Source: an uncultured Clostridia bacterium
Lineage (GTDB): Bacteria > Bacillota > Clostridia > Christensenellales > Borkfalkiaceae
Reading direction: 5' to 3'
NCBI GenBank assembly: GCA_947630605.1
Contig: CANRIO010000002.1
Location: 9 to 64,008, forward strand
Length of the DNA: 64,000 nucleotides
Shown here: piece after piece, positions 274 through 55,154 of the stretch
Layout of the letters: the number at the start of each line of letters is the position of its first letter
How positions within the stretch are numbered: the stretch's first letter is position 1
Notes under the pieces: generated by a model
Told to the model about the DNA's origin: nothing
Seen by the model: the letters and a program-made list of their open reading frames with translations, nothing else
Database searches by the model: none
Program-made: the position numbers and the translations under genes

Positions 274-324
274 AATTCCTATCTTTTCGATAGGAATTAT
301 ACCATGTCCGAACCCTTGTGTCAA
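274..324 (-). promoter_or_regulatory. Promoter of the nifS-like gene, with a perfect 25-bp palindromic operator candidate overlapping it.
   Basis: Minus strand: TTGACA (324..319), a 17-nt spacer, then TATAAT (301..296). AATTCCTATC-N5-GATAGGAATT at 274..298 overlaps the -10 and the predicted +1. The promoter spacer contains one copy of the recurrent motif TCGGACATGG. Confidence 0.6.
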
Positions 325-348
325 GCATTTTTGCGGTATTGTATGCAT

Positions 349-800
349 ACCGCGTCATGCTGAGCCGATAAAGAGGGATGAAAACTGCGAGCCCATCCCC
401 GAAGCATCCCGAGGATGAAAACAGCAACATTGATAAACAGCAACCCGTTCCAAATTTCGTCATGCTGCCCCGACCGCGGCTTCTATTATTTATCGAAGGT
501 CGGCACGAAGTAGCGCAGTTGAAGTATCACCTTATTATTCGGACTTACGTTTTAGGAGATTCTTCGGAGAGTTGCTTTCACGGAAAGCCTTATTGGCGTG
601 GTCGGCTCAGAATGACGCTTACCGCCCCACATCATTCATTATTCCCTCATCTCGACGCCGTATATTATTCCCCCTCATCTCGACGCCGCGCCGCCCATCG
701 GGCGGCGCGGCGGAGGAGACCCCTCTCAAAGCACTTCGTTGGGTTTGTAGGGATCCTCTCGGCTTCGCCTCGGAATGAGGACTTTCCCCCTCCGTGCCTC
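349..800. repeat. Composite intergenic repeat cluster R1.
   Basis: An A-type long palindrome spans 354..616 (arms GTCATGCTGAGCCGATAA ... TCGGCTCAGAATGAC). A B-type element is nested inside it at 459..515. A C-type element follows at 645..780 (CCTCATCTCGACG ... CCTCGGAATGAGG). The same modules recur at nine other sites. Confidence 0.8.
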
Positions 801-804
801 ATCC

Positions 805-834
805 ACAAAAAAAGACCTTGCCCGAATGGCAAGG
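805..834 (-). terminator. Rho-independent terminator of the rpsF-ssb-rpsR operon.
   Basis: Stem CCTTGCC / GGCAAGG (816..822 and 828..834) with a 5-nt loop. On the minus strand it is followed by a U-run (plus-strand A-run 805..813). Confidence 0.7.
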
Positions 835-853
835 CCTTATGCAACAACAAATT

Positions 854-1183: not shown

Positions 1184-1242
1184 ATCTTACTCCTTTTAGA
1201 ATTTAGTGGCCGCTTCTGCGGGTGCAAAAGGGCTGTTTCCCC

Positions 1243-1671: not shown

Positions 1672-1672
1672 C

Positions 1673-1960: not shown

Positions 1961-2043
1961 TCTCTTTTACCTCCCGGTCTTATTCGGCATGCCTTTGCAG
2001 CTTGTGGCTGCGGCATGCAAGGCTATGCGACTTTTGTTTTTTC

Positions 2044-2072: not shown

Positions 2073-2116
2073 CGCGTTTTGAACGGGTTTTCGATTTCTC
2101 GGAAAGAATATGATTG

Positions 2117-9855: not shown

Positions 9856-9981
9856 AGTGCTATAAATCTCCTTTGGGTTTTTTGTACTTTCATTCTACAC
9901 ACTTCAACAAATATTGTCAAGAGTTTCACGAAAAGTTTTTTCACAATTTCTCATTTTTCCGCGTGTCGGACATGGTGGCGG

Positions 9982-10515
9982 TCAAAAGCCTCTCTCGAGG
10001 AAAATTTCCCCCGTCTCAAGCCGCTTCCAGAGTATTGTATTCCCCTCGAGCACACAATATGACCGCGGGGAATTTTCTTTTGGAATGGAGACGGAGCCGC
10101 AGTTGCAGTAGAGGAAGTTCTCCCGCTCCTCGCAGGCGGGGACATGGAAGTGCCCGCAGAAGAGGATATCCCCCTCCTTCATGAGGGCGGGCGTCTTGTG
10201 CCCGTGGCAGAAGAAAATTTCCCGTCCCGCAAAGGGGAGAAGGACGAGGTCGGCCGCAACGGGGAACTCCAAGACGAGGGAGTCCACCTCGCTGTCGCAG
10301 TTGCCCCTGATGCAGACGATGCTTTCCTTGAGCGAATTGAGGATGGCTGCCGTCTCAAGGGTGGAGTACCCCTCGGGAAGAGGGTTGCGGGCGCCGTGAT
10401 AGAGAAGATCCCCGAGGAGGATGAGCTTGTCCGCCCCTTCCCCAAGGAAGCGCTCTTTGAGCATTCCGCAATATTTGGCGGAGCCGTGGATATCCGATGC
10501 GATCATGTATTTCAT
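9982..10515 (-). CDS. yfcE: YfcE-type metallophosphoesterase (MJ0936 family phosphodiesterase).
   Basis: The track ORF was trimmed to the ATG at 10515 (GGGGAGG RBS). MKYMIASDIHGS, LLGDLLYHGARNPLPEGY, IRGNCDSEVD and GHxH align along their whole length to my recollection of E. coli YfcE. Confidence 0.85.
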   Translation of the reverse strand: MKYMIASDIHGSAKYCGMLKERFLGEGADKLILLGDLLYHGARNPLPEGYSTLETAAILNSLKESIVCIRGNCDSEVDSLVLEFPVAADLVLLPFAGREIFFCHGHKTPALMKEGDILFCGHFHVPACEERENFLYCNCGSVSIPKENSPRSYCVLEGNTILWKRLETGEIFLERGF

Positions 10516-10544: not shown

Positions 10545-11966
10545 TCAGGTGAGCGGAGCAAACAACATCGCGAGCCGCCCCAAAGCGCGCATGAAGGGGT
10601 TCGCCTTTTTGAGCGGACACCCCTCTTCGAAGCAGGTGCGAAAGTCGCGTTCGACCGCCGCGGCGAGGGCGGGATCCTCCGCAAAGACGCCGCATTCCGC
10701 CTGCACATACAGGCTGCGGAAATCGAGATTATAGCTGGAGACAAGGGCGCATTCCCCGTCGATCGCAATGCTCTTCGCATGCAGAAAGCCGGGGGTATAT
10801 TCGCGCACTTTGACCCCCCTTTCCGCGAGCTCCCGCGCATACGTCCTCGTCAGAAAAAATACGAGCTTCTTGTCGGGGATATGGGGGATCATGAGGCGCA
10901 CATCCACCCCCGATGCGGCCGCCGCAAAGAGGGCCTGCATCACGGCGTGCGGGAGGGAGAGATAGGGGGAAGAGAGGCAGACGCTCTTTTTTGCCGAGGC
11001 GATGAGTTGGGGAAGAAGGAGGGGAAAGAGCCTCCCGTCCCGCCTTGTCCCGTCGAAGAGCGCGCAGAAGGGAACGCCGTCCGCCTTCTCTTTTGGCCGT
11101 GCATGGGCCCCCTTTGAGCGCGTCAGGGCATACCATGTCTGAAGAAAGCCCTCTTCAAAGCCGCTCACATCCCCCGAAATCCGCACCGCGCTGTCCTTCC
11201 AGCGGCCGAAACGGATGCGCTCGCCCACATATTCGTCGGCGAGGTTGATCCCGCCCGTATAGCACACGTCGTCGATGAGAAAGAGTTTCCTGTGATCCCG
11301 ACGCGTCAGCCCTCTCTGCGGGCGCAGACGGGAGAAGACGGCGGTCTTTATCCCGCGGGATACAAGGCTTTTCGCATAGCGGCGGGGGAGGGTGAGGCTG
11401 CAGCCGAAGTCGTCGAAGATGACGCGCACATCCAGCCCCTGTCTTGCCTTCTTTTGGAGAAGGAGGAGAATTTCTCCCCAGAATTTCCCCTCGGCGATGA
11501 TGTAGTATTCGAGATAAATGCGCCGCTTCGCCCTCTTCAGATCGGCAAAGAGCGCGGCGCGCATCTCCTCCCCCGAGGCGAGGTATCTGATGCGTCCCCT
11601 TGCGACATGGGTGCCCTTGAGACGCTCTGCCGTCGCCGCAACGCGGGAAAAGAGGGAGCCGCCCTCCCCCGAGATGGGGAAGACCCTCGGCCTTCTTTCC
11701 GTCTCGGAGAAGAAGAGGACGAGGATGGGCCCCACCCACGGGAGAAAGCCGAGGAGCGCGAGCTTTGCGATCTTTCTCTCGGGGAGCTCTTCGAGGACAA
11801 GGGTGACGGCGGCGGCGAGCAAGGAAAACGCCCGTTCCACGATGGCGACGGGCGCGAGGAGGCGGGGAAGCCGTACCGCAAGAAGGATGCCCGCAAAGAG
11901 CGCTAATAGAAAGAGGAGCGCAAGGGGGAAGAGCCTTCCGCGCAAAAAGAGCCGCAGTCTACGCAT
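10545..11966 (-). CDS. cls: Cardiolipin synthase.
   Basis: 473 aa. Two N-terminal TM helices and two PLD HKD motifs (HRKLFLIDD...GGINL and HAKSIAIDG...SSYNLDFRS). Confidence 0.9.
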   Translation of the reverse strand: MRRLRLFLRGRLFPLALLFLLALFAGILLAVRLPRLLAPVAIVERAFSLLAAAVTLVLEELPERKIAKLALLGFLPWVGPILVLFFSETERRPRVFPISGEGGSLFSRVAATAERLKGTHVARGRIRYLASGEEMRAALFADLKRAKRRIYLEYYIIAEGKFWGEILLLLQKKARQGLDVRVIFDDFGCSLTLPRRYAKSLVSRGIKTAVFSRLRPQRGLTRRDHRKLFLIDDVCYTGGINLADEYVGERIRFGRWKDSAVRISGDVSGFEEGFLQTWYALTRSKGAHARPKEKADGVPFCALFDGTRRDGRLFPLLLPQLIASAKKSVCLSSPYLSLPHAVMQALFAAAASGVDVRLMIPHIPDKKLVFFLTRTYARELAERGVKVREYTPGFLHAKSIAIDGECALVSSYNLDFRSLYVQAECGVFAEDPALAAAVERDFRTCFEEGCPLKKANPFMRALGRLAMLFAPLT

Positions 11967-16557: not shown

Positions 16558-17754
16558 ATGCAGACACTTGCAAGGCGCATCCGCGCGATCTCTCCCTCCC
16601 TCACCCTCGCCATCAGCGCCAAGGCCAAGGCCATGAAGGCGGCGGGGGAGGATGTCGTCAACTTCGGCGTCGGCGAACCCGACTTCGAGACGCCCTCCTA
16701 TATCAAAGAGGCCGCCATCGATGCGATAAAAGACGGGCAGACGCGGTATACCCCCGCGGCGGGGACGCTTGCGCTCCGCCGTGCGATCGCGAAAAAACTT
16801 CTCGTGGAAAACGACCTTTGCTATTCGCCCGAGGAGATCGTCGTCTCGAACGGTGCGAAGCACGCTATCTTCAACGCCTGCTACGCCCTCGTGGACGAGG
16901 GGGACGAGGTCGTCATCCCCGCGCCCTATTGGCTCACCTATCCCGAGATCGTAAAGACCCTCGGCGGCGTCCCCGTTTTTGTGGAGGCAAAGCGGGAGGA
17001 CGGCTTCAAAATTTCTCCCAAACAGCTCAAAGAGGCGATCACGCCGCGCACCAAACTTTTCATCTTCAACTCCCCCTGCAATCCCACGGGGGCGGTGTAT
17101 TCCGAAGAGGAGGTGCGCGCCCTCGCCGCCGTCTGCGAGGAGGCGGGGATCTTCGTCCTCTCGGATGAGATCTACGAAAAACTCGTCTATGGGGACAAAA
17201 AGCCCTTCTCCTTTGCGGCCGTCTCCGAAAAAATGAAGCAAAGGACGGTGACGGTGAACGGCCTCTCCAAGACCTTTGCCATGACGGGCTGGCGCATCGG
17301 CTACCTTGCGGCCCCCTTGGAGATCGCAAAGGCGATCTCCTCCTTCCAGAGCCATGCGACGAGCAATCCCAACTCCGTCGCCCAGTGCGCGGCGGTCGCG
17401 GCGCTTACGGAAAATGACCCCTCCGTCTCGGACATGGTGGCCGCGTTTTCTGCGAGAAGGCAAAGAATGCTCGCCCTTATCGCGGACATGGGTGGGGTGG
17501 AATGCGTCGTGCCCGACGGAGCGTTCTATGTGATGCTCGTCGTCGAAGGGACCTTCGGGAAGCGCTATCGCGGCAAAACCATCGAAAATTCCGTGGACTT
17601 TGCGGAAATTCTTCTCGAGGAGGAGAAGGTGGCCGTCGTGCCCGGGGCGGCGTTCGGCGCTGACGGGTGCGTGCGCCTTTCCTATTCCCTCTCCATGGAG
17701 GACCTCGAAAAGGGACTTTCCCGCATCGCGGACTTTCTGCTAAACCTTCGGTGA
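16558..17754 (+). CDS. Pyridoxal-phosphate aminotransferase class I (aspartate aminotransferase-like).
   Basis: The track ORF was trimmed to the ATG at 16558. Contains NFGVGEPDFETP, NSPCNPTG and SKTFAMTGWRIGY (the PLP lysine context). Confidence 0.9.
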   Translation: MQTLARRIRAISPSLTLAISAKAKAMKAAGEDVVNFGVGEPDFETPSYIKEAAIDAIKDGQTRYTPAAGTLALRRAIAKKLLVENDLCYSPEEIVVSNGAKHAIFNACYALVDEGDEVVIPAPYWLTYPEIVKTLGGVPVFVEAKREDGFKISPKQLKEAITPRTKLFIFNSPCNPTGAVYSEEEVRALAAVCEEAGIFVLSDEIYEKLVYGDKKPFSFAAVSEKMKQRTVTVNGLSKTFAMTGWRIGYLAAPLEIAKAISSFQSHATSNPNSVAQCAAVAALTENDPSVSDMVAAFSARRQRMLALIADMGGVECVVPDGAFYVMLVVEGTFGKRYRGKTIENSVDFAEILLEEEKVAVVPGAAFGADGCVRLSYSLSMEDLEKGLSRIADFLLNLR

Positions 17755-18368: not shown

Positions 18369-19862
18369 ATGAAGTTTGTGAGTACGAGAGGGGAGGAGAC
18401 GGTCAGTTCGTTCGAGGCAGTCGTCCGCGGCATGGCGGGCGGCGGCGCATTGTTTGTGCCCGAAAGGTTTCCCGAGGTCTCGAAGGAGGAACTTTCGGAC
18501 ATGCTCCCCCTCGATTATCCCGAGCGGGCGTCATTGATCCTCGGAAAGTATTTCGACGAGTACGATCGGGAAGGCCTTCTTTCCGCCCTCCGCACGGCAT
18601 TTGACAAGTTCGAAGGGAGCGACCCCGCCCCCCTCGTGCGCATGGAGAGCGGCATCTATATGCTCGAGCTCTTCCACGGGCCCACCTGCGCGAGCAGCGA
18701 TCTCTCCCTCGGCGTCTTTCCCTATCTTTTGAAGGAGGGGCGCGCCCTTCTCGGGGCAAAGGAGAACATGCTCGTCGTTTCCGCCTCGAGCGGGAACACG
18801 GGCAAGGCCGTTTTGGAGGCATTCGAAGGGGAGGAGGGCGTGAAGGCCATCGTCTTCTATCCCGACGACGGGGCCTCCAAGATGCAGAAGCTCCAGCTTT
18901 GCACACAGGACGGCGAAAATCTCGACGTCGTCGCCGTGAGGGGGAGTTTGGACGACTGCACGAACGGCATCAGGAAATTCTTCCGCAACGAGAAGTTTTC
19001 TGCCGCCATTGCGGAGAAAAACTATCGCCTCACCGTGGCGGGCTCCGCCAACATCGGCATGCTCCTTCCCAAGATCTGCTACTTCTTCTCCGCCTATTTG
19101 GACCTCGTCTCCGCCGATCAGATCAAGATGGGGGAGAAGGTGAATTTCTGTGCGCCGACGGGGAACTTCGGCAACCTTCTCGCGGGATACTATGCAAAGC
19201 GCATGGGCCTTCCCATCGGCTCCATCCTCGTTGCATCCAATAAAAATTGCGCCCTCACCGACTTCTTCCGCACGGGCGTCTATGACATAAAGCGCCCGCT
19301 GTACCGCACGATGTCGCCCGCCCTGGATATCCTCTTTGCCTCCGAGATCGAACGGCTCGTCTTCGAGGCTTCGGGAAGGAACGCGGCGCGCACTTTGGAG
19401 CGCATGAAACAGCTCGCCTCCTCGGGAAGGTTTTCTCTCCCCTCCGAAGAGATCTCGGGCCTGCAGGAGACCTTCTATGCGGGAAGCACTTCGGAGGACG
19501 ACACAGTGGAGTGCATCTACGAATTTTTCGAGGAGTACGGCTACCCCATGGACACCCACACGGGCGTCGCCATGGACGTCGCAAATAAGTACCTCGAGAA
19601 GATCGAGGACGATACCATGTCCGAGAAACGCCCCATGATCGTCCTCTCGACGGCCACGCCCTACAAGTGCCCGCAGGACGTTCTGTATGCGCTCACGGGC
19701 AACGACGTGAAGGACAGTTTCAAGGGTGTCAAGCGCATCCATCTCCTCACGGCGATGAAGGTCCCCGAGGCCATCAAGTCGGTGCGCTATAAGCCCATCC
19801 GCTTCAAGACGGCCGTCTCCCCGGACAAGATGTTCGACGCCGTCCTCAAATTCCTCGGCTGA
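18369..19862 (+). CDS. Threonine synthase homologue (long, E. coli ThrC type) lacking the PLP-binding lysine.
   Basis: 497 aa, collinear with my recollection of E. coli ThrC (LELFHGPT..., SSGNTGKA, SANIG.LLPKICYFF, PTGNFGNLLAGYYAKRMGLP). The conserved LAFKD is CASSD here; the Lys position is Ser-110, codon AGC at 18696..18698. Confidence 0.8.
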   Translation: MKFVSTRGEETVSSFEAVVRGMAGGGALFVPERFPEVSKEELSDMLPLDYPERASLILGKYFDEYDREGLLSALRTAFDKFEGSDPAPLVRMESGIYMLELFHGPTCASSDLSLGVFPYLLKEGRALLGAKENMLVVSASSGNTGKAVLEAFEGEEGVKAIVFYPDDGASKMQKLQLCTQDGENLDVVAVRGSLDDCTNGIRKFFRNEKFSAAIAEKNYRLTVAGSANIGMLLPKICYFFSAYLDLVSADQIKMGEKVNFCAPTGNFGNLLAGYYAKRMGLPIGSILVASNKNCALTDFFRTGVYDIKRPLYRTMSPALDILFASEIERLVFEASGRNAARTLERMKQLASSGRFSLPSEEISGLQETFYAGSTSEDDTVECIYEFFEEYGYPMDTHTGVAMDVANKYLEKIEDDTMSEKRPMIVLSTATPYKCPQDVLYALTGNDVKDSFKGVKRIHLLTAMKVPEAIKSVRYKPIRFKTAVSPDKMFDAVLKFLG

Positions 19863-20178: not shown

Positions 20179-21189
20179 ATGGAAGAGAATGTCGGCATTA
20201 TGAAGAAAACCGTCTATTCCGCCGTTCAGCCGACGGGGAGCCTCACCATCGGGAACTTTGTGGGGGCCATCCGCAATTGGCTGCGTCTGCAAAACGAGTA
20301 CGACTGCTATTTTGCCATTGCAGATCTTCATGCCATCACCGTGCGGCAGGAACCCGCGGAGCTTCGCCGCCGTACCTTGGAGCTTGCCGCCCTCTACCTT
20401 GCCTGCGGGATCGACCCCGAAAAATGCGCCCTGTATGTGCAGTCGCACGTCTCTGCGCATGCGGAGCTTTGCTGGATCCTCAACACTCTCACCTATGTGG
20501 GCGAGGCCTCCCGCATGACGCAGTTCAAGGATAAATCGCAAAAACACGCCGACAATATCAACATGGGCCTCATGGATTACCCCGTCCTCATGGCGGCGGA
20601 CATCCTCCTCTATCAGACGGACTTTGTCCCCGTCGGCGCGGATCAGAAGCAGCATGTCGAACTCTCGCGCGACCTCGCCGAGCGCTTCAACGGCCGCTAC
20701 GGGGAGACCTTCAAGGTGCCCGAGCCCCTCATCGTCAAGGGGGAGGCGCGCATCTGTTCCCTGCAGGACCCTGCAAAGAAGATGTCCAAATCGGACGAAA
20801 ACCCGAATGCCTCCGTCTTCCTCTCCGATGACCGCGACACCGTCATCCGCAAGTTCAAGCGCGCCGTGACGGACAGCGACAACCGCATCGTCTGCTCGGA
20901 GGAAAAGCCCGGGATCAGCAACCTTCTCAACATCTATTGCGCGTTCTCGGGGCATACCATGTCCGAGGCAGAGGCTTCATTCTCAGGCATGGGGTATGGC
21001 GATTTCAAACTCGCCGTGGGGGAGGTCGTCGCCGATGTTCTTGCTCCCATACAGGCGGAGCAAAAGCGGCTCCTTGCCGACAAGAAGTATCTCACGGAAG
21101 TCTTACAAGGGGGCGCGGAGCGGGCATTTAAGACGGCCCGGAGGACGCTTTCCAAAGTCTGCCGCAAAGTCGGTTTCTACAGGGAGTGA
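20179..21189 (+). CDS. trpS: Tryptophan--tRNA ligase.
   Basis: 336 aa. Contains QPTGSLTIGNFVGA (the HIGH-region equivalent), ADLHAITV and KMSKS. An alternative start lies at 20200. Confidence 0.95.
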   Translation: MEENVGIMKKTVYSAVQPTGSLTIGNFVGAIRNWLRLQNEYDCYFAIADLHAITVRQEPAELRRRTLELAALYLACGIDPEKCALYVQSHVSAHAELCWILNTLTYVGEASRMTQFKDKSQKHADNINMGLMDYPVLMAADILLYQTDFVPVGADQKQHVELSRDLAERFNGRYGETFKVPEPLIVKGEARICSLQDPAKKMSKSDENPNASVFLSDDRDTVIRKFKRAVTDSDNRIVCSEEKPGISNLLNIYCAFSGHTMSEAEASFSGMGYGDFKLAVGEVVADVLAPIQAEQKRLLADKKYLTEVLQGGAERAFKTARRTLSKVCRKVGFYRE

Positions 21190-29544: not shown

Positions 29545-29739
29545 GGGCTAAAAACAATTTCCCCATACCATGTCGGGGTCGAAGAATGAGAGGCTCGGAC
29601 ATGGTCTTGGCATAATTTCTTTCGAAACACAGGGCACGGCTTTCCCCGCGCCCTTTTTCTTATCCCGAAAAAATGCGCTTCTTTTCGAAAAGGCCCCCGC
29701 CCAAAGAGGACGCGGGGCGTAATTTTTGGGGAAATATGT

Positions 29740-45057: not shown

Positions 45058-46146
45058 ATGACAAACATCGCCCTCATCGGTTGCACGGGAAGCATCGGGC
45101 GGCAGACGCTCGACATCGTGGAACGCTATCCCGACCTCTTCCGCGTCACCGCCCTCGTCTGCGGCTCGGATGCGGAGGACCTTGCCGCGCTCAAAAAACG
45201 CTTCTCTCCCCGCGTCGCCTATTGCGCAAGCGAGGGGAATTTTTCGCATGAAGAACTCTTCGAAGATTGCGACGTCGCCTTCATCGCGGCGGGGGGCTTC
45301 GCGGGCCTTCGCTATACCATGTCCGCGATCGAGGCGGGAAAACGCGTCCTTCTCGCCAATAAGGAGTCCCTCGTCTGCGGCGGCGAGGTAGTCACGCAGG
45401 CGGCAAAGAAGCGGGGCGTCGGGATCGTTCCCGTCGACAGCGAGCACTCCGCCATCTTTCAGGCGCTCGGCTTCGACCGCCATTCTAAGTTCGATAAGCT
45501 CATCCTCACCGCGAGCGGCGGCCCCTTCCTGCATTTGAAAAAAGAAGAGCTCGCCCGCGTGACGCCCGGGATGGCCCTTTCGCACCCTACGTGGAAGATG
45601 GGCAAAAAGGTCACCGTGGACAGCGCGACCCTCCTCAACAAGGGGTACGAGGTCATCGAGGCGAAGTGGCTCTTCGGCGCGGATTTCGATCAGATCGAGG
45701 CGGTCGTGCATCCCGAGAGCATCGTGCATTCCATCGTCACCTTTGCGGACGGCGCGTCCGTCGCCCAGCTCGGCTTCCCCGACATGAAGCTCCCCATCCA
45801 GCTCGCGCTCACCTATCCAGAAAGGCTCCCCTGCATGCCCGCGCTGGACTTTTCCAAATTGGGCGTACTGCACTTTTTGCCGCTGCCGCGGGAGAAATTT
45901 CCCTGCTTCGACCTCGCCCTCAAGGCGGGAAGGGCGGGCGGAACGGCTCCCACCCTTCTCAACGGGGCGGCGGAGTGCGCGGTCTCCGCTTTTTTGCAGG
46001 GCCACATAACATTTCCACGGATCGCCGAAACTATCGATGAAGTCCTTTGCGGCCTCCCGCAGGGCAAGGCGGACGGTCTTCCCGCCCTCGAAGAGGCGGA
46101 CGGCATGGCACGGAGGGCCGCACGGGCGTTGATCTATGGCAAATAA
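45058..46146 (+). CDS. dxr: 1-deoxy-D-xylulose-5-phosphate reductoisomerase.
   Basis: The ATG at 45058 is preferred over the track's GTG at 45052. Contains IALIGCTGSIGRQTLDIV, LANKESLV and NKGYEVIEA. Confidence 0.95.
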   Translation: MTNIALIGCTGSIGRQTLDIVERYPDLFRVTALVCGSDAEDLAALKKRFSPRVAYCASEGNFSHEELFEDCDVAFIAAGGFAGLRYTMSAIEAGKRVLLANKESLVCGGEVVTQAAKKRGVGIVPVDSEHSAIFQALGFDRHSKFDKLILTASGGPFLHLKKEELARVTPGMALSHPTWKMGKKVTVDSATLLNKGYEVIEAKWLFGADFDQIEAVVHPESIVHSIVTFADGASVAQLGFPDMKLPIQLALTYPERLPCMPALDFSKLGVLHFLPLPREKFPCFDLALKAGRAGGTAPTLLNGAAECAVSAFLQGHITFPRIAETIDEVLCGLPQGKADGLPALEEADGMARRAARALIYGK

Positions 46147-47554
46147 TCTTCTCAGTGTGTGGGGGACGATCGGCTCCGTCCTCCTCGCCATCCTCATCCT
46201 TCTCATCATGATCACCATCCACGAATTCGGGCACTACGTCGTGGGCAAGATCTTAAAATTCAAGATCGACGAATTCTCGATCGGCTTCGGCCCCGCGCTC
46301 TTCAAAAAGAAGCGGAAGAAGTCGGACGAGATCTTCGCCCTCCGCCTCATCCCCCTTGGCGGATATTGCGCTTTTGCGGGGGAAGACGAGCTCGAAGAGG
46401 AGCGGAAAAAGAAGCCGAAAAAGAAGCGTAAGACAAAAGACGATGGCACCATGTCCGAGGATGCCCCCTCCGGTGAGCCTTTTGCAGAGATAAAGGAAGG
46501 GGAGAATGGGACGGAGGAGACCATCCTTCTGACGCCCGCCCCCGAGGAGGCGCAGACGCGCACCGAAGGGGAGGAAGTATCCGAGCCCACCGCAAAGGAA
46601 CCTGCCCCCGAAATTCCCTCGGAAGAGGTGTCGATCTCTTCCGAAATTCCCTCGGAAGGAGCCGAAAATGCCCCCGCCCCGCCTGAAGAGAAGGATACGA
46701 GCGGGCTCTTCACCCATAAGAAGCCGTGGCAGCGCATTCTGGTGCTCCTCGCGGGCGCGTTCATGAACTACCTTTTGGCCCTCTTCCTCATCCTCATTCT
46801 CCTTGCGAGCTACGGCCAGAGCCTCATCAAGGTGGGCGGCGTCGAGGCCGTGGAGGAGGTCCCCGCCGAATATTCTCTTCGGGCGGACGACATCTTGCTC
46901 TCCGTCAACGGAAAGGGCATCTATGTCCCCGCCGACCTCTACTTTGGCCTCAACGGGAAGAAGGAGGGGGATATCGTGAAGTTTTCCCTCTTGCGGAAGC
47001 AGGAGGAAGGCTCCTATCAAAGGCAGACCGTGGAGGTCATGCTCCGAGGCGATGTGAAGGTGAAAAACAGCAGCGACTATCATACCGTCTGGCCCGCCCT
47101 CGGCATCGACGTCGAAGAGCGGGGGGATATCGGCTACTACATGATCGGGACCACCTATCACCGCTTCGGCTTCTTCGAAACCCTCGGCCGCACCTTCATG
47201 TATTCCTTCAAGATCTCGGGGAGCATCTTCCGCGTGGTCGGCGAACTTCTCACGGGCAAGATCGGCATCAAGACGCTCGGCGGCCCCGTGACGACCATTT
47301 CGACCACTTCGCAGGTCGTCGCGGCAAACGGGTTCCGCGGATTTTTGGAGATGGCTGCCTTCATCGGCGTCAACCTTGCCGTTGTCAACCTCATGCCCAT
47401 TCCCGCCCTCGATGGCAGCAAGATCGTGTTCACCATCATCGAATGGATCAGAAAGAAGCCGATCAGCCGCAAGGTGGAGGCCATCATCCACGCCGTCGGC
47501 ATCGTATTCCTCTTCGCCTTCGCCATCGTCGTCGACGTACTGCAATTCGTGTAA
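46136..47554 (+). CDS. rseP: RIP site-2 metalloprotease RseP/RasP with a long low-complexity insertion.
   Basis: 472 aa. Contains HEFGHY, IPLGGYC, a PDZ region and a C-terminal NLMPIPALDG. About 115 aa of charged, Pro-rich insert follow the GED segment. Confidence 0.9.
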   Translation: MANNLLSVWGTIGSVLLAILILLIMITIHEFGHYVVGKILKFKIDEFSIGFGPALFKKKRKKSDEIFALRLIPLGGYCAFAGEDELEEERKKKPKKKRKTKDDGTMSEDAPSGEPFAEIKEGENGTEETILLTPAPEEAQTRTEGEEVSEPTAKEPAPEIPSEEVSISSEIPSEGAENAPAPPEEKDTSGLFTHKKPWQRILVLLAGAFMNYLLALFLILILLASYGQSLIKVGGVEAVEEVPAEYSLRADDILLSVNGKGIYVPADLYFGLNGKKEGDIVKFSLLRKQEEGSYQRQTVEVMLRGDVKVKNSSDYHTVWPALGIDVEERGDIGYYMIGTTYHRFGFFETLGRTFMYSFKISGSIFRVVGELLTGKIGIKTLGGPVTTISTTSQVVAANGFRGFLEMAAFIGVNLAVVNLMPIPALDGSKIVFTIIEWIRKKPISRKVEAIIHAVGIVFLFAFAIVVDVLQFV

Positions 47555-47625: not shown

Positions 47626-49119
47626 CTATTCCTCTTCGGACATGGTACCCTCGTCTTCCGTCTCCTCATCGAGCTGAACCCCTTCGCCGAGGGGCTCCAT
47701 GGCGCCCGCTTGCTTTTTCCGTTCATGATAAAGAAGGACCGCATAGACGACGGCGGCGGCAAAGAGCAGGGCGGCGAAGACGAGCATGACGATGGGGGCC
47801 GTATAGGTCATCGTCGGTCTCTGCGTCAACATATAGGTGTCGTCCTCCGGGTAAATGTAGTTGAGGAAGAGTTTCCCGAATACCATATTGGTGGCAAGTG
47901 CCGCGATAGCGCACACGAGGAGGACCCCCGCCACGAAGGGCACGTCGCTTCTTTGGGATCTGTCTTCCTCCGTGAGAAGTTTGCCCCACGAATTGAGGAG
48001 GAGGTAGGCGCAAAGAAGAATGATACCGATGCCGAAGACTTCGGCAAGCATCGCCGTAGTCAGCTGATCTGTCGGTGCGGCGGAGTATTCCGTGCCGATG
48101 AATCGCATCGCGGAGATCGACAGGAGGCTCATGATATTGACGCTGCCCTCGCTCCTCATCCCGATGCTTCCCTTCGCCGCAAAGGCGAGGATGATGACGG
48201 ACAGGATGGAGCAGAGGATGGCGAAGATGCCCTTTATTGCACTCATGCGGTTCATGGCCGACTTCCCCTTGGCGGCAAACTGCAGGCCACAGCCCGCCCC
48301 GAAGAAGATGCCGCCCAAGATGAGACCTGCAAGCGTCGCCCCATTCAAAGATGTGTGGACGGTTCTTTCCGTCCCCGTTACGTCCTGTGCATAGAGGGAG
48401 AGGAGGATGCACGCGCCGCAAAGAAAGACGCCGTATGCCGCCGCAGCGGGCGTGAAGAAGTCGGTGTTTCCCCTTGTCCCACGAACATGGCGCACGAAGC
48501 GAACGATCGCCACCGCCAGACATATGGGGATGGAGACAAAACAGCCCGCGCCGACGAGCGTCCCGAATGCGGCGTTGAAGTAGAGCGAAAAGGCGAGGAT
48601 GCCGGTGTCTCCACTAAAGGCCTTCAAAGCCACGGCGATATCGTCATAGGCGGAGGAGAAGAAATCGTAGACGGAGATGCTCGCCCTGCTCGTTTCACCC
48701 AATTCGACGGTCTTCGACGTGAGGCCGAGGAGGAACATGAAGATGAAGGCGATCGCCGCCGAGGCAAGAAGGACGATCCCTCCCGATAGCGACAGATAGA
48801 AGGAAGCCGATCTCGGAGATGCCGCCCTTTTGGGAGAGGGACTTGCGGCCGCGGTTTCTCTTTGGGCAGGCCGCGGGAAGGCGTCAGGGCTATGGCCGCA
48901 TGCGGGGCAAAAACGCGCCCCCTCGGGCAAGACCTCCCCACAACCGGGGCAGGTGCGCTTTCCGTCTATCCGGCTGCCGCATGCGAGGCAAAACTTCGCC
49001 CGCTCCTCGTTTGCCGTGCTGCAAATGGGACAGACGATCTTGCCGTCGATCCGCTTTCCGCACTCCAGGCAGTAGACCGCATTGTCGGGATTTTCCGTAG
49101 AGCAATATTTGCAAATCAT
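47626..49119 (-). CDS. Zinc-ribbon (triple CxxC pair) N-terminal domain fused to a polytopic membrane protein, hypothetical.
   Basis: The track ORF was trimmed to the ATG at 49119 (GAGGA RBS). MICKYCSTENPDNAVYCLECG...CPICST...CLACG...CPGCG...CPACG is followed by about 10 TM helices. The C-terminal tail is ETEDEGTMSEEE. Confidence 0.75.
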   Translation of the reverse strand: MICKYCSTENPDNAVYCLECGKRIDGKIVCPICSTANEERAKFCLACGSRIDGKRTCPGCGEVLPEGARFCPACGHSPDAFPRPAQRETAAASPSPKRAASPRSASFYLSLSGGIVLLASAAIAFIFMFLLGLTSKTVELGETSRASISVYDFFSSAYDDIAVALKAFSGDTGILAFSLYFNAAFGTLVGAGCFVSIPICLAVAIVRFVRHVRGTRGNTDFFTPAAAAYGVFLCGACILLSLYAQDVTGTERTVHTSLNGATLAGLILGGIFFGAGCGLQFAAKGKSAMNRMSAIKGIFAILCSILSVIILAFAAKGSIGMRSEGSVNIMSLLSISAMRFIGTEYSAAPTDQLTTAMLAEVFGIGIILLCAYLLLNSWGKLLTEEDRSQRSDVPFVAGVLLVCAIAALATNMVFGKLFLNYIYPEDDTYMLTQRPTMTYTAPIVMLVFAALLFAAAVVYAVLLYHERKKQAGAMEPLGEGVQLDEETEDEGTMSEEE

Positions 49120-49302: not shown

Positions 49303-50514
49303 CTACTTCTCTTCGGACATGGTGCCATCGTTTTCCGTCTCGACCGCCGTTTTCTTCTCGGCAGGGCGGAACTTGCGCACCATCTTCACAATGGCGGGCG
49401 AGGAGAAGACGAGAACGCCGACGGCGACGACGATCGCGATGTCGACGAACACGAAGGAGTTATAGCCGAGGCTGTACGCCCATGCGCCCGCAGGGTCGCC
49501 CGTGAGGTCGGCGAAGGCGAACACGCCCGAGAGGACGTGGGAGACAAAGCGCAGCGCGCTCGCCGCGATCGCACCGAGGGCGAATTGGACCTGCGGGAGT
49601 TTGTCGAGCTTCTTCACATTTGCGAACAGTCCCGCAACGCCGATGCACGCAAATGCGATGGGATAGTCGAGGAGAAACTGCGCGGGGTGGATGAGCCAGG
49701 GGTCCTGCACGGCCTGCAGGATACCGTAGATCATGCCCGCGAAGATGCCCTTCTTCACGCCGAACATATAGGCGTAGATCATGAGGGGAAGCAGGGAGGC
49801 GATGGTGACCGAACCCCCTTGGGGGAGATGGAAGATACGGATGTAGGAGAGGGCGAAGCTCATGGCGATGCACACGGCCGCATAGGAGATGGATTTGGAA
49901 TCGAAGCCCGTGTTGTCCTTGCGCCCGAAGAAGAAGGCGAAGAAGGCGAGCAGGCCGCAGAGGAGGGCGGCGGAGACGTAGAGCAGGGCGTTATCGAGGG
50001 TCGTGATGCCGCTATCCTGCCCCGCGCCGTAGACGCCGAGGCAGACGAGCATGGCGATGAGTGCCGCTCCCGTCACGGAGAGGGAGACGATCTTCCCGAT
50101 GCGGAAGGCCTTTTCCCCGAACAAATAGCAGATATACGAGGCCGCCGCAGAGAGGATGACGCACGCGCCGAGCACGACGGCGGGGTAGAGGACGAGGTCG
50201 TAGATGACGCCCTCCTCGCGCATCTCCATGATCTCGAGGGAGAACATCGTGATGATGACGGCGAGCGCAAAGCCGACGGCAAGCGCGACGGCGACGGTGA
50301 GATAGCGCTTGATGTCATCCCGCTTCTTCCACATGACGAACGCGCCAATGAGGATGAGGAGGGCGACAAACGCCACAAAGCACCACAAAAAGACGGAGGA
50401 GAGCCCGCTCTTTGCAAACGACGTCCAAACGTCGGGATAGAGATAGCTCTCCACATCGCCCTCGGCATTCTGGATGGTGTCCGTATATGCCGCGAGCAGG
50501 GAAACTTGTAACAT
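49303..50514 (-). CDS. thiT: ECF-type thiamine transporter S-component (ThiT) fused to an extra ~190-aa N-terminal membrane domain.
   Basis: The track ORF was trimmed to the ATG at 50514 (AAGGAGG RBS). The C-terminal half matches my recollection of ThiT (LPQGGSV, AQFLLDYPIAFACIGVAGLF, WAYSLGYN). A TPP riboswitch lies upstream. The C-terminal tail is ETENDGTMSEEK. Confidence 0.8.
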   Translation of the reverse strand: MLQVSLLAAYTDTIQNAEGDVESYLYPDVWTSFAKSGLSSVFLWCFVAFVALLILIGAFVMWKKRDDIKRYLTVAVALAVGFALAVIITMFSLEIMEMREEGVIYDLVLYPAVVLGACVILSAAASYICYLFGEKAFRIGKIVSLSVTGAALIAMLVCLGVYGAGQDSGITTLDNALLYVSAALLCGLLAFFAFFFGRKDNTGFDSKSISYAAVCIAMSFALSYIRIFHLPQGGSVTIASLLPLMIYAYMFGVKKGIFAGMIYGILQAVQDPWLIHPAQFLLDYPIAFACIGVAGLFANVKKLDKLPQVQFALGAIAASALRFVSHVLSGVFAFADLTGDPAGAWAYSLGYNSFVFVDIAIVVAVGVLVFSSPAIVKMVRKFRPAEKKTAVETENDGTMSEEK

Positions 50515-50758: not shown

Positions 50759-51340
50759 ATGAAATACGATTTTGCCGCCCTCCGCTTTTGCGAGGATGAA
50801 AACATCAAAGACAGGGTGTATTGGTACCTTTCCGATCTTCCCTTGAAGGAAAACGAGGAGGCCCTCGCCCCCGTCGGCGTCCACGACCGCCTGCAGAAGG
50901 CGCGGGTGGAACGGCTTACCTCCGCCGAAGAGGAGGACGCTCCCTACGATGTGCGCCTCATCAAGCGCGTTGCAGCCAAAATGGGCGCGAGGAAGCTCTC
51001 TGTGGGCGGAGCCTCCTTTGTGGAATTCGGCGGCGTGCGGTACGACGACCGCCATTACACCCGCTTTTCCCGCGTCATCTATTCGGAGGAAAAAGCGGAC
51101 AAAGGGGAGCTTGCCCTCTACGGCTTTCATGCGGTGTTCGAGGCACCCATGTCCGAGGATGACGGTATTTATCGAGAAATTGTACGCGGACATGGTATCG
51201 CCCTTCTCGGCGGAGAGGGGAAGAAGATCATGAATACGCTCTTTGCCCTTTTGCAGGGCAAGAAAGACGCCGCCGACTTTTTGTATTCCCTCGGCCTCTA
51301 CGAAGGTGAACTCGCCTCCCTCCTCGTCCGCTTGGGGTAA
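50759..51340 (+). CDS. Hypothetical cytoplasmic protein (193 aa).
   Basis: A clean ORF with a plausible promoter (TATAGTATAAT region around 50738). I recognise no motif. It contains an inverted pair of the recurrent 9-mer at 51147 and 51187. Confidence 0.6.
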   Translation: MKYDFAALRFCEDENIKDRVYWYLSDLPLKENEEALAPVGVHDRLQKARVERLTSAEEEDAPYDVRLIKRVAAKMGARKLSVGGASFVEFGGVRYDDRHYTRFSRVIYSEEKADKGELALYGFHAVFEAPMSEDDGIYREIVRGHGIALLGGEGKKIMNTLFALLQGKKDAADFLYSLGLYEGELASLLVRLG

Positions 51341-51585: not shown

Positions 51586-51657
51586 TGCCCCGCGTCAACC
51601 TTGACAAATATCGGACGCTATCTTATAATAATATAAAATCACAGTACGGAGAAAGAT

Positions 51658-52785
51658 ATGAGAAAGTTTTTCTTGGCGCTCTTTGCCTCCCTTCTTGCGG
51701 CGGGGCTCGCAGTTTCGGTTTCGGCATGCGGCGATGAAAATACCCACGAGCATACATACAACGAACAAAACGACTGCACGGTCTGCGGGGAGCATCTGAA
51801 CTTCACCGAGGGCCTTGAGTTCGAGCTCACGGAGAAAAATACCTACTCTGTCACGGGCATGGGTACCGCAGAAAACGTCACCGAGCTCGTGATTCCCGCT
51901 TACCACGATGGCAAGGCGGTGACGGAAATCGGGCAGTTTGCCTTCTCGGGAAATGCCGAAATCGAGAGCGTCGTCATTCCGAACGGCGTGACCGCGATCG
52001 ATCCTCACGCCTTTTTCGGGTGCAGTGCGCTTGCAAAGATCAGCCTTCCCGAAAGCGTGACCGCGATCGACGACGCGGCATTCGATGGCACCGCTTATTT
52101 CGAGAACAGGCAAAATTGGGATGGCGACGTGTTCTATATCGGGAAAGTGCTCATGAAGGCGAGAGACACCCTCTCGGGCGAGTACAAAATAAAGAAGGGA
52201 ACGCGGGTCATCGCACAGGGCGCGTTTATGGGGGTATATCTCGACAACAAATATTCGGGCTGTCCGAACCTGAAAGCCATCGTCATTCCCGAAAGTTTGG
52301 AGTTTATCGGGCCGAGCGTGTTTTCCTATTGCAATACGCTCGAAAAGGTCATGATCGACGACCTTGCGGCGTGGTGCAAAATAACCTTTGCCGACAATTA
52401 TTCCAACCCGCTCTATTATAGCGCGCACCTGTTTGTCAAAGGGAAAGAGATCACCGACCTTGTGATCCCAAACGGCGTATCGGAGATCAAGGCGCATGCG
52501 TTCGTTGATTGCAACGGGGTGAGAAGCGTGACCATCCCGAGCAGTGTGACCACGATCGGGGAGAGTGCGTTTGAATGGTTCGAAAGCCTCGAAAGTGTGA
52601 CCGTCGGCGCCAATGTGGCCTCGATCGGAGGGCACGCTTTTTACAGATGCGAAAACCTGAAAGACATCCGATACCAGGGCACTTCTGCCGCATGGGAGAA
52701 TATCCAAAAGGGCACCTCCTGGAGCCCCTACACAGGATGCACCGTGATTTGCTCCGACGGAACGCAGGTCATCCCCTCATCCTGA
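51658..52785 (+). CDS. Leucine-rich-repeat (BspA-like) surface lipoprotein.
   Basis: 375 aa. The signal peptide plus lipobox is MRKFFLALFASLLAAGLAVSVSAC. It carries repeated ~23-aa LRR units (IPxxVTxIGxxAFxxCxxLxxV). The gene looks lower in GC. Confidence 0.8.
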   Translation: MRKFFLALFASLLAAGLAVSVSACGDENTHEHTYNEQNDCTVCGEHLNFTEGLEFELTEKNTYSVTGMGTAENVTELVIPAYHDGKAVTEIGQFAFSGNAEIESVVIPNGVTAIDPHAFFGCSALAKISLPESVTAIDDAAFDGTAYFENRQNWDGDVFYIGKVLMKARDTLSGEYKIKKGTRVIAQGAFMGVYLDNKYSGCPNLKAIVIPESLEFIGPSVFSYCNTLEKVMIDDLAAWCKITFADNYSNPLYYSAHLFVKGKEITDLVIPNGVSEIKAHAFVDCNGVRSVTIPSSVTTIGESAFEWFESLESVTVGANVASIGGHAFYRCENLKDIRYQGTSAAWENIQKGTSWSPYTGCTVICSDGTQVIPSS

Positions 52786-52790
52786 CCCGC

Positions 52791-53190
52791 GTCATGCTGA
52801 GCCGATAAAGACATTACGCAGTCCATGTGAGAAATTCTCCGAAGCATCCCCTTATGCGAAGTCCGCGTTTTCATTAAGGGGATTCTTCGGAGAGTTGCTT
52901 CGTCGGAAATCCTTATACATGTTATCGGCTCAGAATGACGCCTACCCCTATCCACTAATCACTAACCACTAATCACTAACCACTAATCACTAACCACTAA
53001 TCACTAACCACTAATCACTTCTTCCTCATCTCGACGCGCCGAAGGCGCGGAGGAGACCCCCTCTCAATACACCTTGTTGGGTTTGTAGGGATTCCCTCGG
53101 CTTCGCCTCGGAATGAGGGCGTGGAGTAAGGCTTTCCCCATCCATGGGGGAAGCTGTCACGCTCTGCGTGACTGATGGGGGTTGAGCTTC
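52791..53190. repeat. Repeat cluster R9 (A palindrome, microsatellite, C element, D hairpin).
   Basis: A complete A-type palindrome spans 52791..52939, with arms GTCATGCTGAGCCGATAA / TTATCGGCTCAGAATGAC and inner arms CCGAAGCATCCCC / GGGGATTCTTCGG. A C-type element lies at 53024..53118 and a D-type hairpin at 53121..53187. Confidence 0.85.
52952..53019. repeat. Tandem heptanucleotide microsatellite (YCACTAA), about 9.7 units.
   Basis: CCACTAATCACTAA is repeated 4.9 times head to tail, embedded between the A and C modules of cluster R9. Confidence 0.9.
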
Positions 53191-53288
53191 CAATCGCCGA
53201 CCTTATTATTATATTCGGACATGACGCTTCTGCTAAGGATCAAAAAAGCCTTCCCCGATGAAAGGGAAGGCTTTATGCATAACATTAT

Positions 53289-55154
53289 TTACTTTTTCAA
53301 GCTCAAATAGATCATGAGGACGGCGATGTCGGCGGGGGAGACGCCCGAGATGCGTGCCGCCTGTCCGAAGTTCAGGGGGCGGATGCGGCCGAGCTTTTCC
53401 CTTGCCTCCAGCCGAAGTCCCGTAATTTTCTCGTAGTCGATGTCGGGCGGGAGGGGCTTTTCCTCCATCCGCTTCGCCTTCTCGATCTCCTCCCCGCTGC
53501 GTTTCAAGTACCCCGCATACTTCACTTCCGTCTCGCAGGCAAGAAGGACGTCCCGCGGCACATCTTCGAGGATATGGAAGTTCTCGCAGATCTCCTTTAA
53601 GGGAATACCGCGGCGGAGAAGGTCGGCAAAAGTCACGGAGGAAGTGAGGGGGGAGTAGCCGTATTTTTGCACGAGCGCGTCCGCGGTTTTTTGCTCTGCG
53701 CGTGCCTCGAGTGCGGACATGGTACCCTCCTTTTTGCTCTTCCGCGCAAGAAACCGCTCATACCGCTCCCTTGTCGCAAGGCCCGACTTATAGCCTATTT
53801 CCGTGAGCCGCTCGTCGGCGTTATCCTGCCGGAGGGAGAGGCGGAACTCCGCCCGCGAGGTCATCATGCGGTAGGGCTCCTCGGTGCCCTTCGTCACGAG
53901 GTCGTCGATGAGGACGCCGATATACGCCTGGTCCCGCCGAAGCACGAGCGGGGGAAGGCCGCGGAGCTTCAGGGATGCATTCAGCCCCGCCATGAGGCCC
54001 TGCGCGGCGGCCTCTTCGTAGCCGCTCGTCCCGTTGATCTGTCCCGCAAGATACAGCCCCTCCACCCGCTTGTATTCGAGGGTGGGCAGAAGGTCGAGGG
54101 AGTCGATGCAGTCGTACTCGATGGCGTAGGCATAGCGCATGATCTCGCACTTTTCCAGCCCCTTTACCGAGCGGTAGACCTCCTTTTGCAGGTCGTGGGG
54201 GAGGGAGGTGGAGAGCCCCTGCACATACACCTCCGTCGTGTCCGCCCCCTCGGGTTCTAAAAAGAGCTGATGCCGCTCCTTGTCCGAAAACCGCACCACC
54301 TTCGTCTCGATGGAGGGGCAATAGCGCGGCCCCGCCGAGGAGATCTGCCCGTTGTAGAGGGGGGCACGGTCGAGATTTTTGAGAATGATCTCGTGCGTCT
54401 TTTGGTTGGTGTAGGCGAGGTGGCAGGGAGTTTGGCTCTCGGGCAGCTTCTCATTCATGAAGGAGAAGGGGAAGACGTCCTCCCCCGGCTGGACGGGGAG
54501 GGCGGCAAAGTCCACCGTGCGTCCGTCGAGGCGGGCGGGCGTGCCCGTCTTGAACCTCCTTATGCGAAGGCCGAGGTCTGCAAGATTTTGGGTGAGAAGG
54601 GTGGCGCGTTCGAAGCCGTTGGGGCCCGCATCGCGGACATGGGTGCCAGTAATTGTGCGTGCACCGAGATAGACGCCCGTTGCGACGACGACCGCGCGGC
54701 AGGAAAATATTCCCCCGTAGGAAGTGCGAACGCCCGTGACTTTTCCGTTTTCCGTTAAAATTTCGGCCGCTTCGCCTTGCACGATGCGAAGGTTTTCGGT
54801 ATGTTCGAAGACCCGCTTCATCTCGGTGTGATAGCGGTTTTTATCCACCTGTGTGCGGAGGGACTGCACCGCCGCGCCCTTGCCCTCGTTGAGCATGCGG
54901 TACTGCAGGGCGCACCTGTCGGCGCACAGCCCCATCTCCCCGCCGAGGGCGTCGATCTCACGCACCAAATGCCCCTTCGCGGTGCCGCCGACGGAGGGGT
55001 TGCAGGGCATGAAGCCGATACTGTCGAGATTGAGGGTCAGAACGACGGTCTTTTGTCCCGTCCGCGCAAGGGCGAGTGCGGCCTCCGCACCCGCATGTCC
55101 CGCGCCGATGACAACGGCGTCGCATGCCCCTTCGAAAAAAGTCTGCATATCCAA
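53289..55154 (-). CDS. mnmG: tRNA uridine 5-carboxymethylaminomethyl modification enzyme MnmG (GidA).
   Basis: 621 aa, with DAVVIGAGHAGAEAALA, PCNPSVGGTAKGHLVREIDALGG and a C-terminal GVSPADI. Confidence 0.97.
   Translation of the reverse strand: MDMQTFFEGACDAVVIGAGHAGAEAALALARTGQKTVVLTLNLDSIGFMPCNPSVGGTAKGHLVREIDALGGEMGLCADRCALQYRMLNEGKGAAVQSLRTQVDKNRYHTEMKRVFEHTENLRIVQGEAAEILTENGKVTGVRTSYGGIFSCRAVVVATGVYLGARTITGTHVRDAGPNGFERATLLTQNLADLGLRIRRFKTGTPARLDGRTVDFAALPVQPGEDVFPFSFMNEKLPESQTPCHLAYTNQKTHEIILKNLDRAPLYNGQISSAGPRYCPSIETKVVRFSDKERHQLFLEPEGADTTEVYVQGLSTSLPHDLQKEVYRSVKGLEKCEIMRYAYAIEYDCIDSLDLLPTLEYKRVEGLYLAGQINGTSGYEEAAAQGLMAGLNASLKLRGLPPLVLRRDQAYIGVLIDDLVTKGTEEPYRMMTSRAEFRLSLRQDNADERLTEIGYKSGLATRERYERFLARKSKKEGTMSALEARAEQKTADALVQKYGYSPLTSSVTFADLLRRGIPLKEICENFHILEDVPRDVLLACETEVKYAGYLKRSGEEIEKAKRMEEKPLPPDIDYEKITGLRLEAREKLGRIRPLNFGQAARISGVSPADIAVLMIYLSLKK

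Follow-up and report, generated by a model that had tools for sequence, protein, structure and literature searches.

A short asymmetric DNA motif enriched beside mnmG-dnaA-recF in gut Clostridia as a candidate protein-binding-site array

A stretch of 64,000 nucleotides from an uncultured Clostridia bacterium (contig CANRIO010000002.1; Christensenellales, Borkfalkiaceae), to which we refer as the window, contains 19 exact copies of the 9-mer CCATGTCCG, seven on the forward and twelve on the reverse strand, an approximately 30-fold excess over expectation. These copies show no orientation bias, are explained neither by codon constraints nor by repeats, are conserved at orthologous positions within a restricted clade, and are confined to one region in the sequence sampled. 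We tentatively read them, with somewhat less than even confidence, as an array of protein-binding sites that marks one chromosomal domain.

Dinucleotide-preserving shuffles of the window gave a mean of 0.61 copies (maximum 5), and an independent-base estimate at the window's GC content of 57.4% gave 0.69; a preliminary description of this DNA, made from the sequence alone, had thus been right to expect fewer than one copy by chance, although it had assumed a GC content of 62%. Among all 9-mers of the window, CCATGTCCG ranks first by excess over an order-3 Markov model. Position counts around this core extend it to (A/C)CCATGTCCG(A/C)G, and the 12-bp consensus is (A/C)CCATGTC(C/T)G(A/C)G. The antisense and intergenic copies likewise prefer A/C-G 3' of the core, so that this preference is part of the DNA motif. 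The motif is asymmetric (reverse complement CGGACATGG) and is used in both orientations. As counted previously, 13 of the 19 copies extend to the 10-mer CCATGTCCGA, and six have ATACCATGTCCG in common. One-mismatch copies are in excess as well (32 versus about 16 expected), several of them with the typical ATA flank; the 8-mer-only and one-mismatch copies listed earlier do exist, five of them at corrected coordinates (10139, 44320, 11133, 18496 and 53216). Outside the window, a literature search with the 9-mer turned up only primer noise, and a 14-mer scan of viral contigs yielded single chance matches among the matches listed. Rfam and tRNA scans of the window produced no match.

The exact copies, all of which had been placed on the correct coordinates and strands before, are listed here together with variant and one-mismatch sites:

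302 to 310, forward strand: exact; intergenic, in the 17-nt spacer of a reverse-strand consensus promoter (324 to 296), upstream of a class-V aminotransferase gene
9967 to 9975, reverse strand: exact; intergenic, 6 nt past the stop codon of a metallophosphoesterase gene (9982-10515, reverse strand)
11133 to 11141, forward strand: variant CCATGTCTG, with the typical cATA 5' flank
17429 to 17437, reverse strand: exact; class I/II aminotransferase gene, antisense, peptide SDM
17483 to 17491, reverse strand: exact; same aminotransferase gene as 17429, antisense, peptide ADM
19615 to 19623, forward strand: exact; thrC, sense, peptide TMSE
20957 to 20965, forward strand: exact; trpS, sense, peptide TMSE
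25975 to 25983, reverse strand: exact; 797-aa gene of unassigned function (reverse strand), sense
27672 to 27680, forward strand: exact; ODP/flavodoxin (FprA-like) gene, sense; orthologous copy in the related locus L005
28159 to 28167, forward strand: variant CCATGTCTG; ODP/flavodoxin gene that also holds 27672
29568 to 29576, forward strand: one-mismatch copy CCATGTCGG; inverted partner of 29596, hairpin downstream of gene 28879-29544
29596 to 29604, reverse strand: exact; intergenic, second arm of the inverted pair with 29568
34193 to 34201, reverse strand: exact; tsf, antisense, peptide SDMG; kept in L001 and L005, with an S-D-M peptide without the motif in L006
43297 to 43305, reverse strand: exact; uppS codon 5, antisense; kept in L001, L003 and L004, CTG in L002
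45317 to 45325, forward strand: exact; dxr, sense; arisen via YTLAA to YTMSA in the clade from W (the window's genome) to L004
46449 to 46457, forward strand: exact; rseP hypervariable linker, sense
47637 to 47645, reverse strand: exact; zinc-ribbon protein gene, C-terminal tail GTMSEEE*, sense
49314 to 49322, reverse strand: exact; ThiT-fusion gene, C-terminal tail GTMSEEK*, sense; paralogous to the 47637 tail
51147 to 51155, forward strand: exact; 193-aa gene, sense; first arm of an inverted pair with a 31-nt gap
51187 to 51195, reverse strand: exact; 193-aa gene, off-phase frame; second arm of the inverted pair
53714 to 53722, reverse strand: exact; mnmG, sense, peptide TMSA
54634 to 54642, reverse strand: exact; mnmG, sense, off-phase frame, peptide THVR; last copy before dnaA (55199-56548)

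The density is thus about 0.3 sites per kb, or one per 3.4 kb, and copy-number heterogeneity inside the window alone is not significant (8-kb bins, P = 0.19). Both inverted pairs reported earlier exist, the first being located at 29568/29596 rather than 29567/29595. Forward and reverse copies are interleaved along the window, with no regional orientation pattern, in agreement with the earlier argument from the lack of strand polarity against a Chi- or KOPS-like element. Polar recombination or translocation signals, such as Chi for AddAB or the FtsK-orienting polar sequences (KOPS) and SpoIIIE recognition sequences (SRS) for FtsK/SpoIIIE, have in their favor that one site per 3.4 kb is similar to the density of Chi in E. 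coli. However, the 7 to 12 orientation split lacks a regional pattern (replication direction could not be inferred), a 30-fold enrichment of a 9-12-mer is far above that of known Chi or KOPS, and such signals are genome-wide whereas the motif here is regional, as described below, so that we regard this explanation as highly improbable.

Using gene calls from a codon-usage model and names assigned by Pfam and NCBIfam, we located 16 copies within 13 unrelated genes (12 in the earlier count) and three, as stated before, in intergenic sequence. Two copies each are found in the class I/II aminotransferase gene, the gene for the 193-aa protein, and mnmG, and single copies in thrC, trpS, tsf, uppS, dxr, rseP, and the genes for the 797-aa protein, the FprA-like ODP/flavodoxin protein, the zinc-ribbon protein, and the ThiT fusion. 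The preferred codon phase noticed initially was recovered: 14 of the 16 genic copies are read as xCC ATG TCC G (sense) or xCG GAC ATG G (antisense). The surface-protein genes of the window contain no copy, as had been seen by eye.

Codon-order shuffling within genes left a mean of 1.05 coding copies (maximum 5 in 500 shuffles) and synonymous-codon shuffling, which keeps the protein, left 4.31 (maximum 10 in 500), compared with the 16 observed; the excess therefore holds against the codon-shuffled null that had been proposed as a check. The tripeptide TMS occurs 11 times versus 1.4 expected. The flanks of the copies are unrelated, except for the paralogous gene tails at 47637 and 49314, which share about 36 of 39 nt and reduce the number of independent sites to about 18. 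As the flanks are otherwise unrelated and both codon-aware nulls fail, the copies represent neither a motif of proteins nor the remains of a repeat. The explanation that they arose as by-products of constraints on proteins or codons, or by decay of a single mobile repeat, finds support in that single pair of tails, but is refuted by the codon nulls (1-4 copies versus 16), the unrelated flanks at all other sites, the location in conserved single-copy housekeeping genes, and the different residues of outgroups at the same positions, which leave it scarcely credible. The same lines of evidence uphold the initial view of a signal at the DNA level rather than a protein motif, and dispose of the single-repeat origin that had been named as a possible refutation. 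Likewise, repetitive extragenic palindromic (REP) elements and miniature inverted-repeat transposable elements (MITEs) have shared flanks or hairpins and are mostly intergenic, unlike these 16 of 19 intragenic copies with unrelated flanks. The zinc-ribbon tail (47626-47660) and the ThiT-fusion tail (49303-49340) are near-identical and have a common 3' flank, TAGTTCG; their sequences suggest that a local duplication or gene conversion took in the motif as well.

The copy described earlier as sitting in a promoter spacer does lie within the 17-nt spacer of a perfect promoter, TTGACA-17-TATAAT on the reverse strand (324 to 296; in its extended form TTGACA-17-TGgTATAAT), while the copy described as following a stop codon, at 9967, does so at a distance of 6 nt rather than 7. 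Directly downstream of the -10 element of the promoter at 296-324 is a terminator-like hairpin (298 to 274), and the class-V aminotransferase (NifS/IscS-like) gene behind the promoter runs off the contig end. The promoter copy, together with the 11 sense versus five antisense genic copies and the resemblance of many sense copies to a ribosome-binding region followed by ATG, might suggest that a transcription regulator uses the sites as operators or roadblocks, or that the motif is read at the RNA level in mRNAs. We give this explanation little credence: 16 of the 19 copies lie deep within genes and are unrelated to gene starts, the 11:5 excess of sense copies does not reach significance and leaves five antisense, and the G-rich upstream context is found mainly in sense copies, where it fits Gly/Glu/Asp codons.

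Relatives were found by a Dxr scan of species-representative genomes; in the following, W denotes the window's own genome and L-numbers denote loci from related metagenome-assembled genomes (MAGs). The closest relatives by Dxr are rabbit-gut MAGs labelled 'uncultured Clostridia bacterium'; L005 is followed by a MAG labelled Christensenella sp. and then by Borkfalkiaceae-type MAGs. The motif frequencies are:

L001: Dxr 93% identical to W, 0.38 copies per kb
L002: Dxr 85% identical to W, 0.27 copies per kb
L003: Dxr 80% identical to W, 0.26 copies per kb
L004: Dxr 77% identical to W, 0.33 copies per kb
L005: Dxr 67% identical to W, 0.14 copies per kb
L008: 0.33 copies per kb
L009: 0.15 copies per kb
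L006, L007 and L010: 0 copies per kb
About 70 outgroup loci: essentially 0 copies per kb

The four rabbit-gut species (L001-L004) carry copies at positions orthologous to those in W, and three more distant relatives have the motif in part. Compared with control 9-mers of the same alignments, full conservation was observed at 9 of 10 sites in L001 (control 0.60) and at 6 of 9 in L004 (control 0.23, P = 0.007); in L002, four of nine sites are exact (control 0.34) and all nine are conserved if position 8 of the motif is read as Y. The sole recurrent substitution is C to T at this position (CCATGTCTG), found at five of nine sites in L002 and at single sites in L001 and L003. Furthermore, the four-fold-degenerate second base of the motif was kept in 23 of 23 comparisons, versus approximately 0.65-0.9 at flanking third-codon positions. 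The tsf and ODP-gene sites are common to W and L005, and L008, L009 and L226 have sites elsewhere in this region, among them some in the rseP linker and in dxr. This linker is part of a long Lys/Glu-rich, low-complexity, hypervariable insert after the HExxH helix of RseP (rseP, 46136-47554; codons ~85-190), which differs in length and sequence in every relative and contains the motif in the W clade and, at another spot, in L009.

Some sites were created by amino-acid changes, as read from the sequences of Dxr and Tsf. Dxr has YTLAA in all outgroups and YTMSA in the motif clade, a change of LA to MS; in tsf, L006 reads AGC GAC ATG AAC (S-D-M), and W, L001 and L005 read TCG GAC ATG GGT with an extra Gly. 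In the Dxr tree, the motif-free lineages L006, L007 and L010 are interleaved with motif-bearing ones, and all three keep the gene order of W without a motif copy; in L006 this order matches from rpsB through rseP, thiT, mnmG, dnaA and recF. This is the pattern expected if a binding factor had been lost and its sites had then decayed. Other words that might serve as a dialect of the motif were sought in the second region described below and in L006, L007 and L010, with only noise as the outcome. Most simply, selection would have maintained an ancestral system in part of the lineages, while its sites decayed in those that had lost it.

The C to T change also bears on repair- or methylation-linked mutational drive, in which an enzyme pair, as in very-short-patch repair or a HIP1-like process, converts near-matches into the motif. 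Consistent with such a drive, the only recurrent change is a C-T exchange at the cytosine of the motif's CpG, and exact copies outnumber the one-mismatch excess. However, in both preferred frames the variable position simply falls on a synonymous third position of a codon, a contiguous asymmetric specificity of 9-12 bp would be unusual for a methyltransferase, and some sites needed multi-step amino-acid changes. Nor is CATG avoided or enriched in the window, where no restriction-modification signature was found. HIP1 itself is a hyper-abundant word inside cyanobacterial genes and, like the motif, is conserved beyond codon expectation, but it is an 8-bp palindrome that is found genome-wide, in contrast to a non-palindromic and regional motif. 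Drive of this kind is, in our estimation, very unlikely.

Other parts of the clade genomes were reached by using surface-protein paralogues, and then SpoIVB, as anchors. The second housekeeping region sampled in this way extends from spoIIIA to hflX (about 35 kb; 11-26 kb per locus). The pattern CCATGTC[CT]G is absent from the 25.7 kb of L223, which belongs to the L002 MAG and contains recN, spoIVB, lysA, scpAB, rluB, three surface-protein genes, lexA and hflX. There are also no copies in this region of two other motif-bearing MAGs, represented by L234 (10.7 kb, L003 MAG) and L228 (21 kb, L005 MAG), or in loci of further close relatives, L231 (19 kb), L232, L233 and L235 (21 kb); the SpoIVB of L231 is 90% identical to that of L002. 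One-mismatch counts in the second region are at or below background. L224 (14.5 kb), which is tied to W and L001 by its repeat architecture, contains no exact copy. Within the L002 MAG, eight copies in the 14.5 kb beside dxr compare with none in 25.7 kb elsewhere (P = 2.9e-4), and the comparison of the window with the unique territory of the second region gave P = 2.7e-4. As the SpoIVB matches sampled represent five of the six closest clusters in a collection of 5.8 billion proteins, mis-binning cannot hide a lineage in which the motif is genome-wide.

The window itself has a corresponding boundary: copies end in mnmG (54634), and the last 9.4 kb, with dnaA, recF, PHP, vanW, rplS and comM, contain none. 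Among loci syntenic to the dnaA side of the window, L226 has one copy and L227 has none. We conclude that, in the sequence sampled, the enrichment is regional and not genome-wide. Uptake bias with recombination, Chi recognition, and repair or methylation drive are all diffusible and should therefore act on all core DNA, which includes the second region and its lack of copies.

This result bears most directly on what the preliminary description suggested, a DNA uptake sequence or self-mark of genome-wide extent. In a DNA uptake sequence (DUS) or uptake signal sequence (USS), DNA that carries the motif is preferentially taken up, and recombination and molecular drive spread it. Much of what is seen in the window would fit: a strongly over-represented 9-12-mer in both orientations without preference, an excess of one-mismatch copies, an inverted pair after a gene, lower-GC surface-protein genes without copies, and a comM-family gene. 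The preferred codon frames and inflated tripeptides also resemble those reported for USS and DUS (PMC2817400), and the CCG/CTG variation among species is comparable to DUS dialects (PMC3630211). Uptake sequences, however, fill the core genome at about one per kb, with 1,471 in H. influenzae and 1,892 in N. meningitidis (PMC2817400), whereas the motif is absent from every other core region sampled, that is, from the second region in three motif-bearing MAGs and three relatives and from L224, and it ends at mnmG-dnaA. Moreover, its density in the window is 3-4 times below that of USS/DUS, and no lineage-specific gains of sites are visible among W, L001 and L002. We know of no uptake specificity in Gram-positive bacteria, a literature search for uptake sequences in Firmicutes turned up none, and ComM/YifB is widespread and hence not diagnostic. 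The genome-wide form of the suggestion is not supported, and an uptake sequence of any extent appears improbable. A k-mer excess in a single window may thus closely resemble an uptake sequence; only sampling elsewhere in the genome revealed that it was regional.

Regional, orientation-independent and conserved asymmetric sites are the trace expected of a sequence-specific protein that organizes one domain. In the binding-site array that we tentatively favor, a sequence-specific DNA-binding protein would recognize these short, asymmetric, clade-specific sites, which are spaced by ~1-5 kb, point in either direction, and occupy the genes and spacers of one neighborhood spanning at least about 37-55 kb and ending at mnmG-dnaA-recF. 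Sites may be accommodated by their host genes through the preferred codon frame, through placement in linkers or at termini, or through conservative amino-acid replacement, and purifying selection on the DNA would then keep them. Bound jointly, they could seed a nucleoprotein domain by which this part of the chromosome is positioned, anchored or compacted, the role that RacA-ram, RicO-ricS and ParB-parS clusters have near the origins of other Firmicutes. Of the ideas put forward initially, that of an architectural signal is therefore the one retained, although with a regional instead of a genome-wide extent.

The accompanying remark that no such signal is established in Firmicutes was too strong. 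A recent preprint describes two sets of origin-region sites, about 25 ram sites of RacA inside coding sequences over ~600 kb around oriC in B. subtilis and nine 18-bp, non-palindromic, intergenic ricS sites of RicO over ~700 kb around oriC in S. aureus, gives one ricS sequence (GTTTGTCTGAGGTTAGAC), and reports the RicO/RacA/RocS family in Clostridia (bioRxiv 10.64898/2026.03.06.710092). Like RacA-ram, the sites described here are multiple, short, within protein-coding genes, and in one chromosomal region of a spore-forming Firmicute; among the sporulation genes of this lineage, the window has one for a SpoIIE-domain protein, and related loci contain spoIIIA and spoIVB. However, ram is a GC-rich 14-bp inverted repeat, in contrast to an asymmetric motif at ~20 times its density, the window shows no RacA-like gene, and proximity to the origin is here only suggested. 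ParB-parS and Noc sites likewise act in cis, may be intragenic, show conservation across species, and serve to nucleate a chromosomal domain, but they are 16-bp palindromes related to TGTTNCACGTGAAACA or ATTTCCCGGGAAAT, to which the non-palindromic motif is unrelated. RicO-ricS is similar in being non-palindromic, of balanced GC content and confined to one chromosomal region, but all nine ricS sites are intergenic and spread over ~700 kb, in contrast to 16 of 19 intragenic and far denser sites here. The core of ricS1, TGTCTGAGG, matches the extended motif TGTC(C/T)GAGG at 8-9 of 9 positions, a match to one published ricS sequence that may be due to chance.

Several observations weigh against a binding-site array near the origin. 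The array is ~20 times as dense as ram or ricS, which are sparse sets (9-25 sites per 600-700 kb, compared with 19 in 64 kb), and the ricS match, resting on one published site, is a lead and not evidence. Protein family scans of the window identified no gene for a MerR-type helix-turn-helix protein, ParB or Noc as a candidate binder. The non-syntenic clade sequence behind the regional restriction amounts to about 35-50 kb and was reached from one housekeeping region and from surface-protein genes. Conservation exceeds background to a moderate degree, and its tests have moderate power, as the clade species have diverged by only 7-20% at the DNA level. Proximity to the origin is suggested by the gene set mnmG-dnaA-recF, which usually flanks oriC; in this neighborhood dnaN is absent, neither the window nor the related loci contain a cluster of DnaA boxes, and GC skew at four-fold sites mirrors gene strand exactly, with no replication signal. 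In addition, the array appears on one side of dnaA only.

The neighborhood in question occupies 53289-57778 of the window, with mnmG and dnaA on the reverse and recF on the forward strand, separated by spacers of 44 nt and 144 nt (the latter between dnaA and recF); the same order is present in L001, L002, L006, L226 and L227. This is an atypical dnaA neighborhood for a Firmicute. Farther along, comM (63178-63999) runs to the end of the window, and nearly all of the 120 closest ComM/YifB homologues also end at contig ends, which suggests that a repeat or insertion hotspot in or just after comM breaks assemblies.

The 193-aa protein (gene 50759-51340) was considered as a binder of the motif and rejected, as it has no family match, no PDB match, and an unusable structure model (pLDDT 38), and its longer homologues carry a C-terminal tyrosine-phosphatase (Y_phosphatase3) domain. 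It belongs to a small family of about 70 clusters among 1.84 billion representatives, and, among the loci examined, its gene and the adjoining leucine-rich-repeat gene are found only in W, L001, L002 and L004.

A second over-represented family in the window consists of modular intergenic repeats of about 100-140 nt, of the form CGCGTCATGCTGAGCCGA ... CCGAAGCATCCCC ... TACGAAGTCCGCGTTTTCAT ... GGATTCTTCG ... GCTCAGAATGACG:

Cores, all on the forward strand: 356, 6016, 20016, 32696, 34839, 35008, 41672, 52793 and 59942
Related modules: 458, 34941 and 51364

All nine cores are on the forward strand regardless of the orientation of flanking genes, and they have no Rfam match; by analogy with REP or IS200-type elements, their shared orientation might follow the direction of replication. 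L001 and L224 contain the core too, and a 19-mer scan detected related palindromic versions in many unrelated GC-rich metagenome contigs. Other words, GAATGACGT/ACGTCATTC (11 times in the 16.1 kb of L225) and a repeat containing cgagcgtagcgaGACTGAGGgggtgtcattct (five times in the 14.5 kb of L224), are probably further intergenic repeat families of these MAGs.

Taken further than the binding of a protein to an array, the data raise the possibility, which we consider rather doubtful, of an undescribed domain-marking system of Christensenellales-like gut Clostridia. Such a system would have placed an asymmetric 12-bp site in housekeeping genes about once per 2-3 kb, through roughly 40-55 kb next to mnmG-dnaA-recF and in places at the expense of conserved amino acids; a putative binder would anchor or organize the region, for example in sporulation or segregation, and sister lineages would have lost the system. 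Should the copies indeed form a domain of binding sites, this lineage, which has no cultured model, would possess a centromere-like or architectural element of unusual density. Conserved enzymes such as Dxr and EF-Ts would then illustrate how strongly proteins can be remodelled by a signal in the DNA that encodes them.

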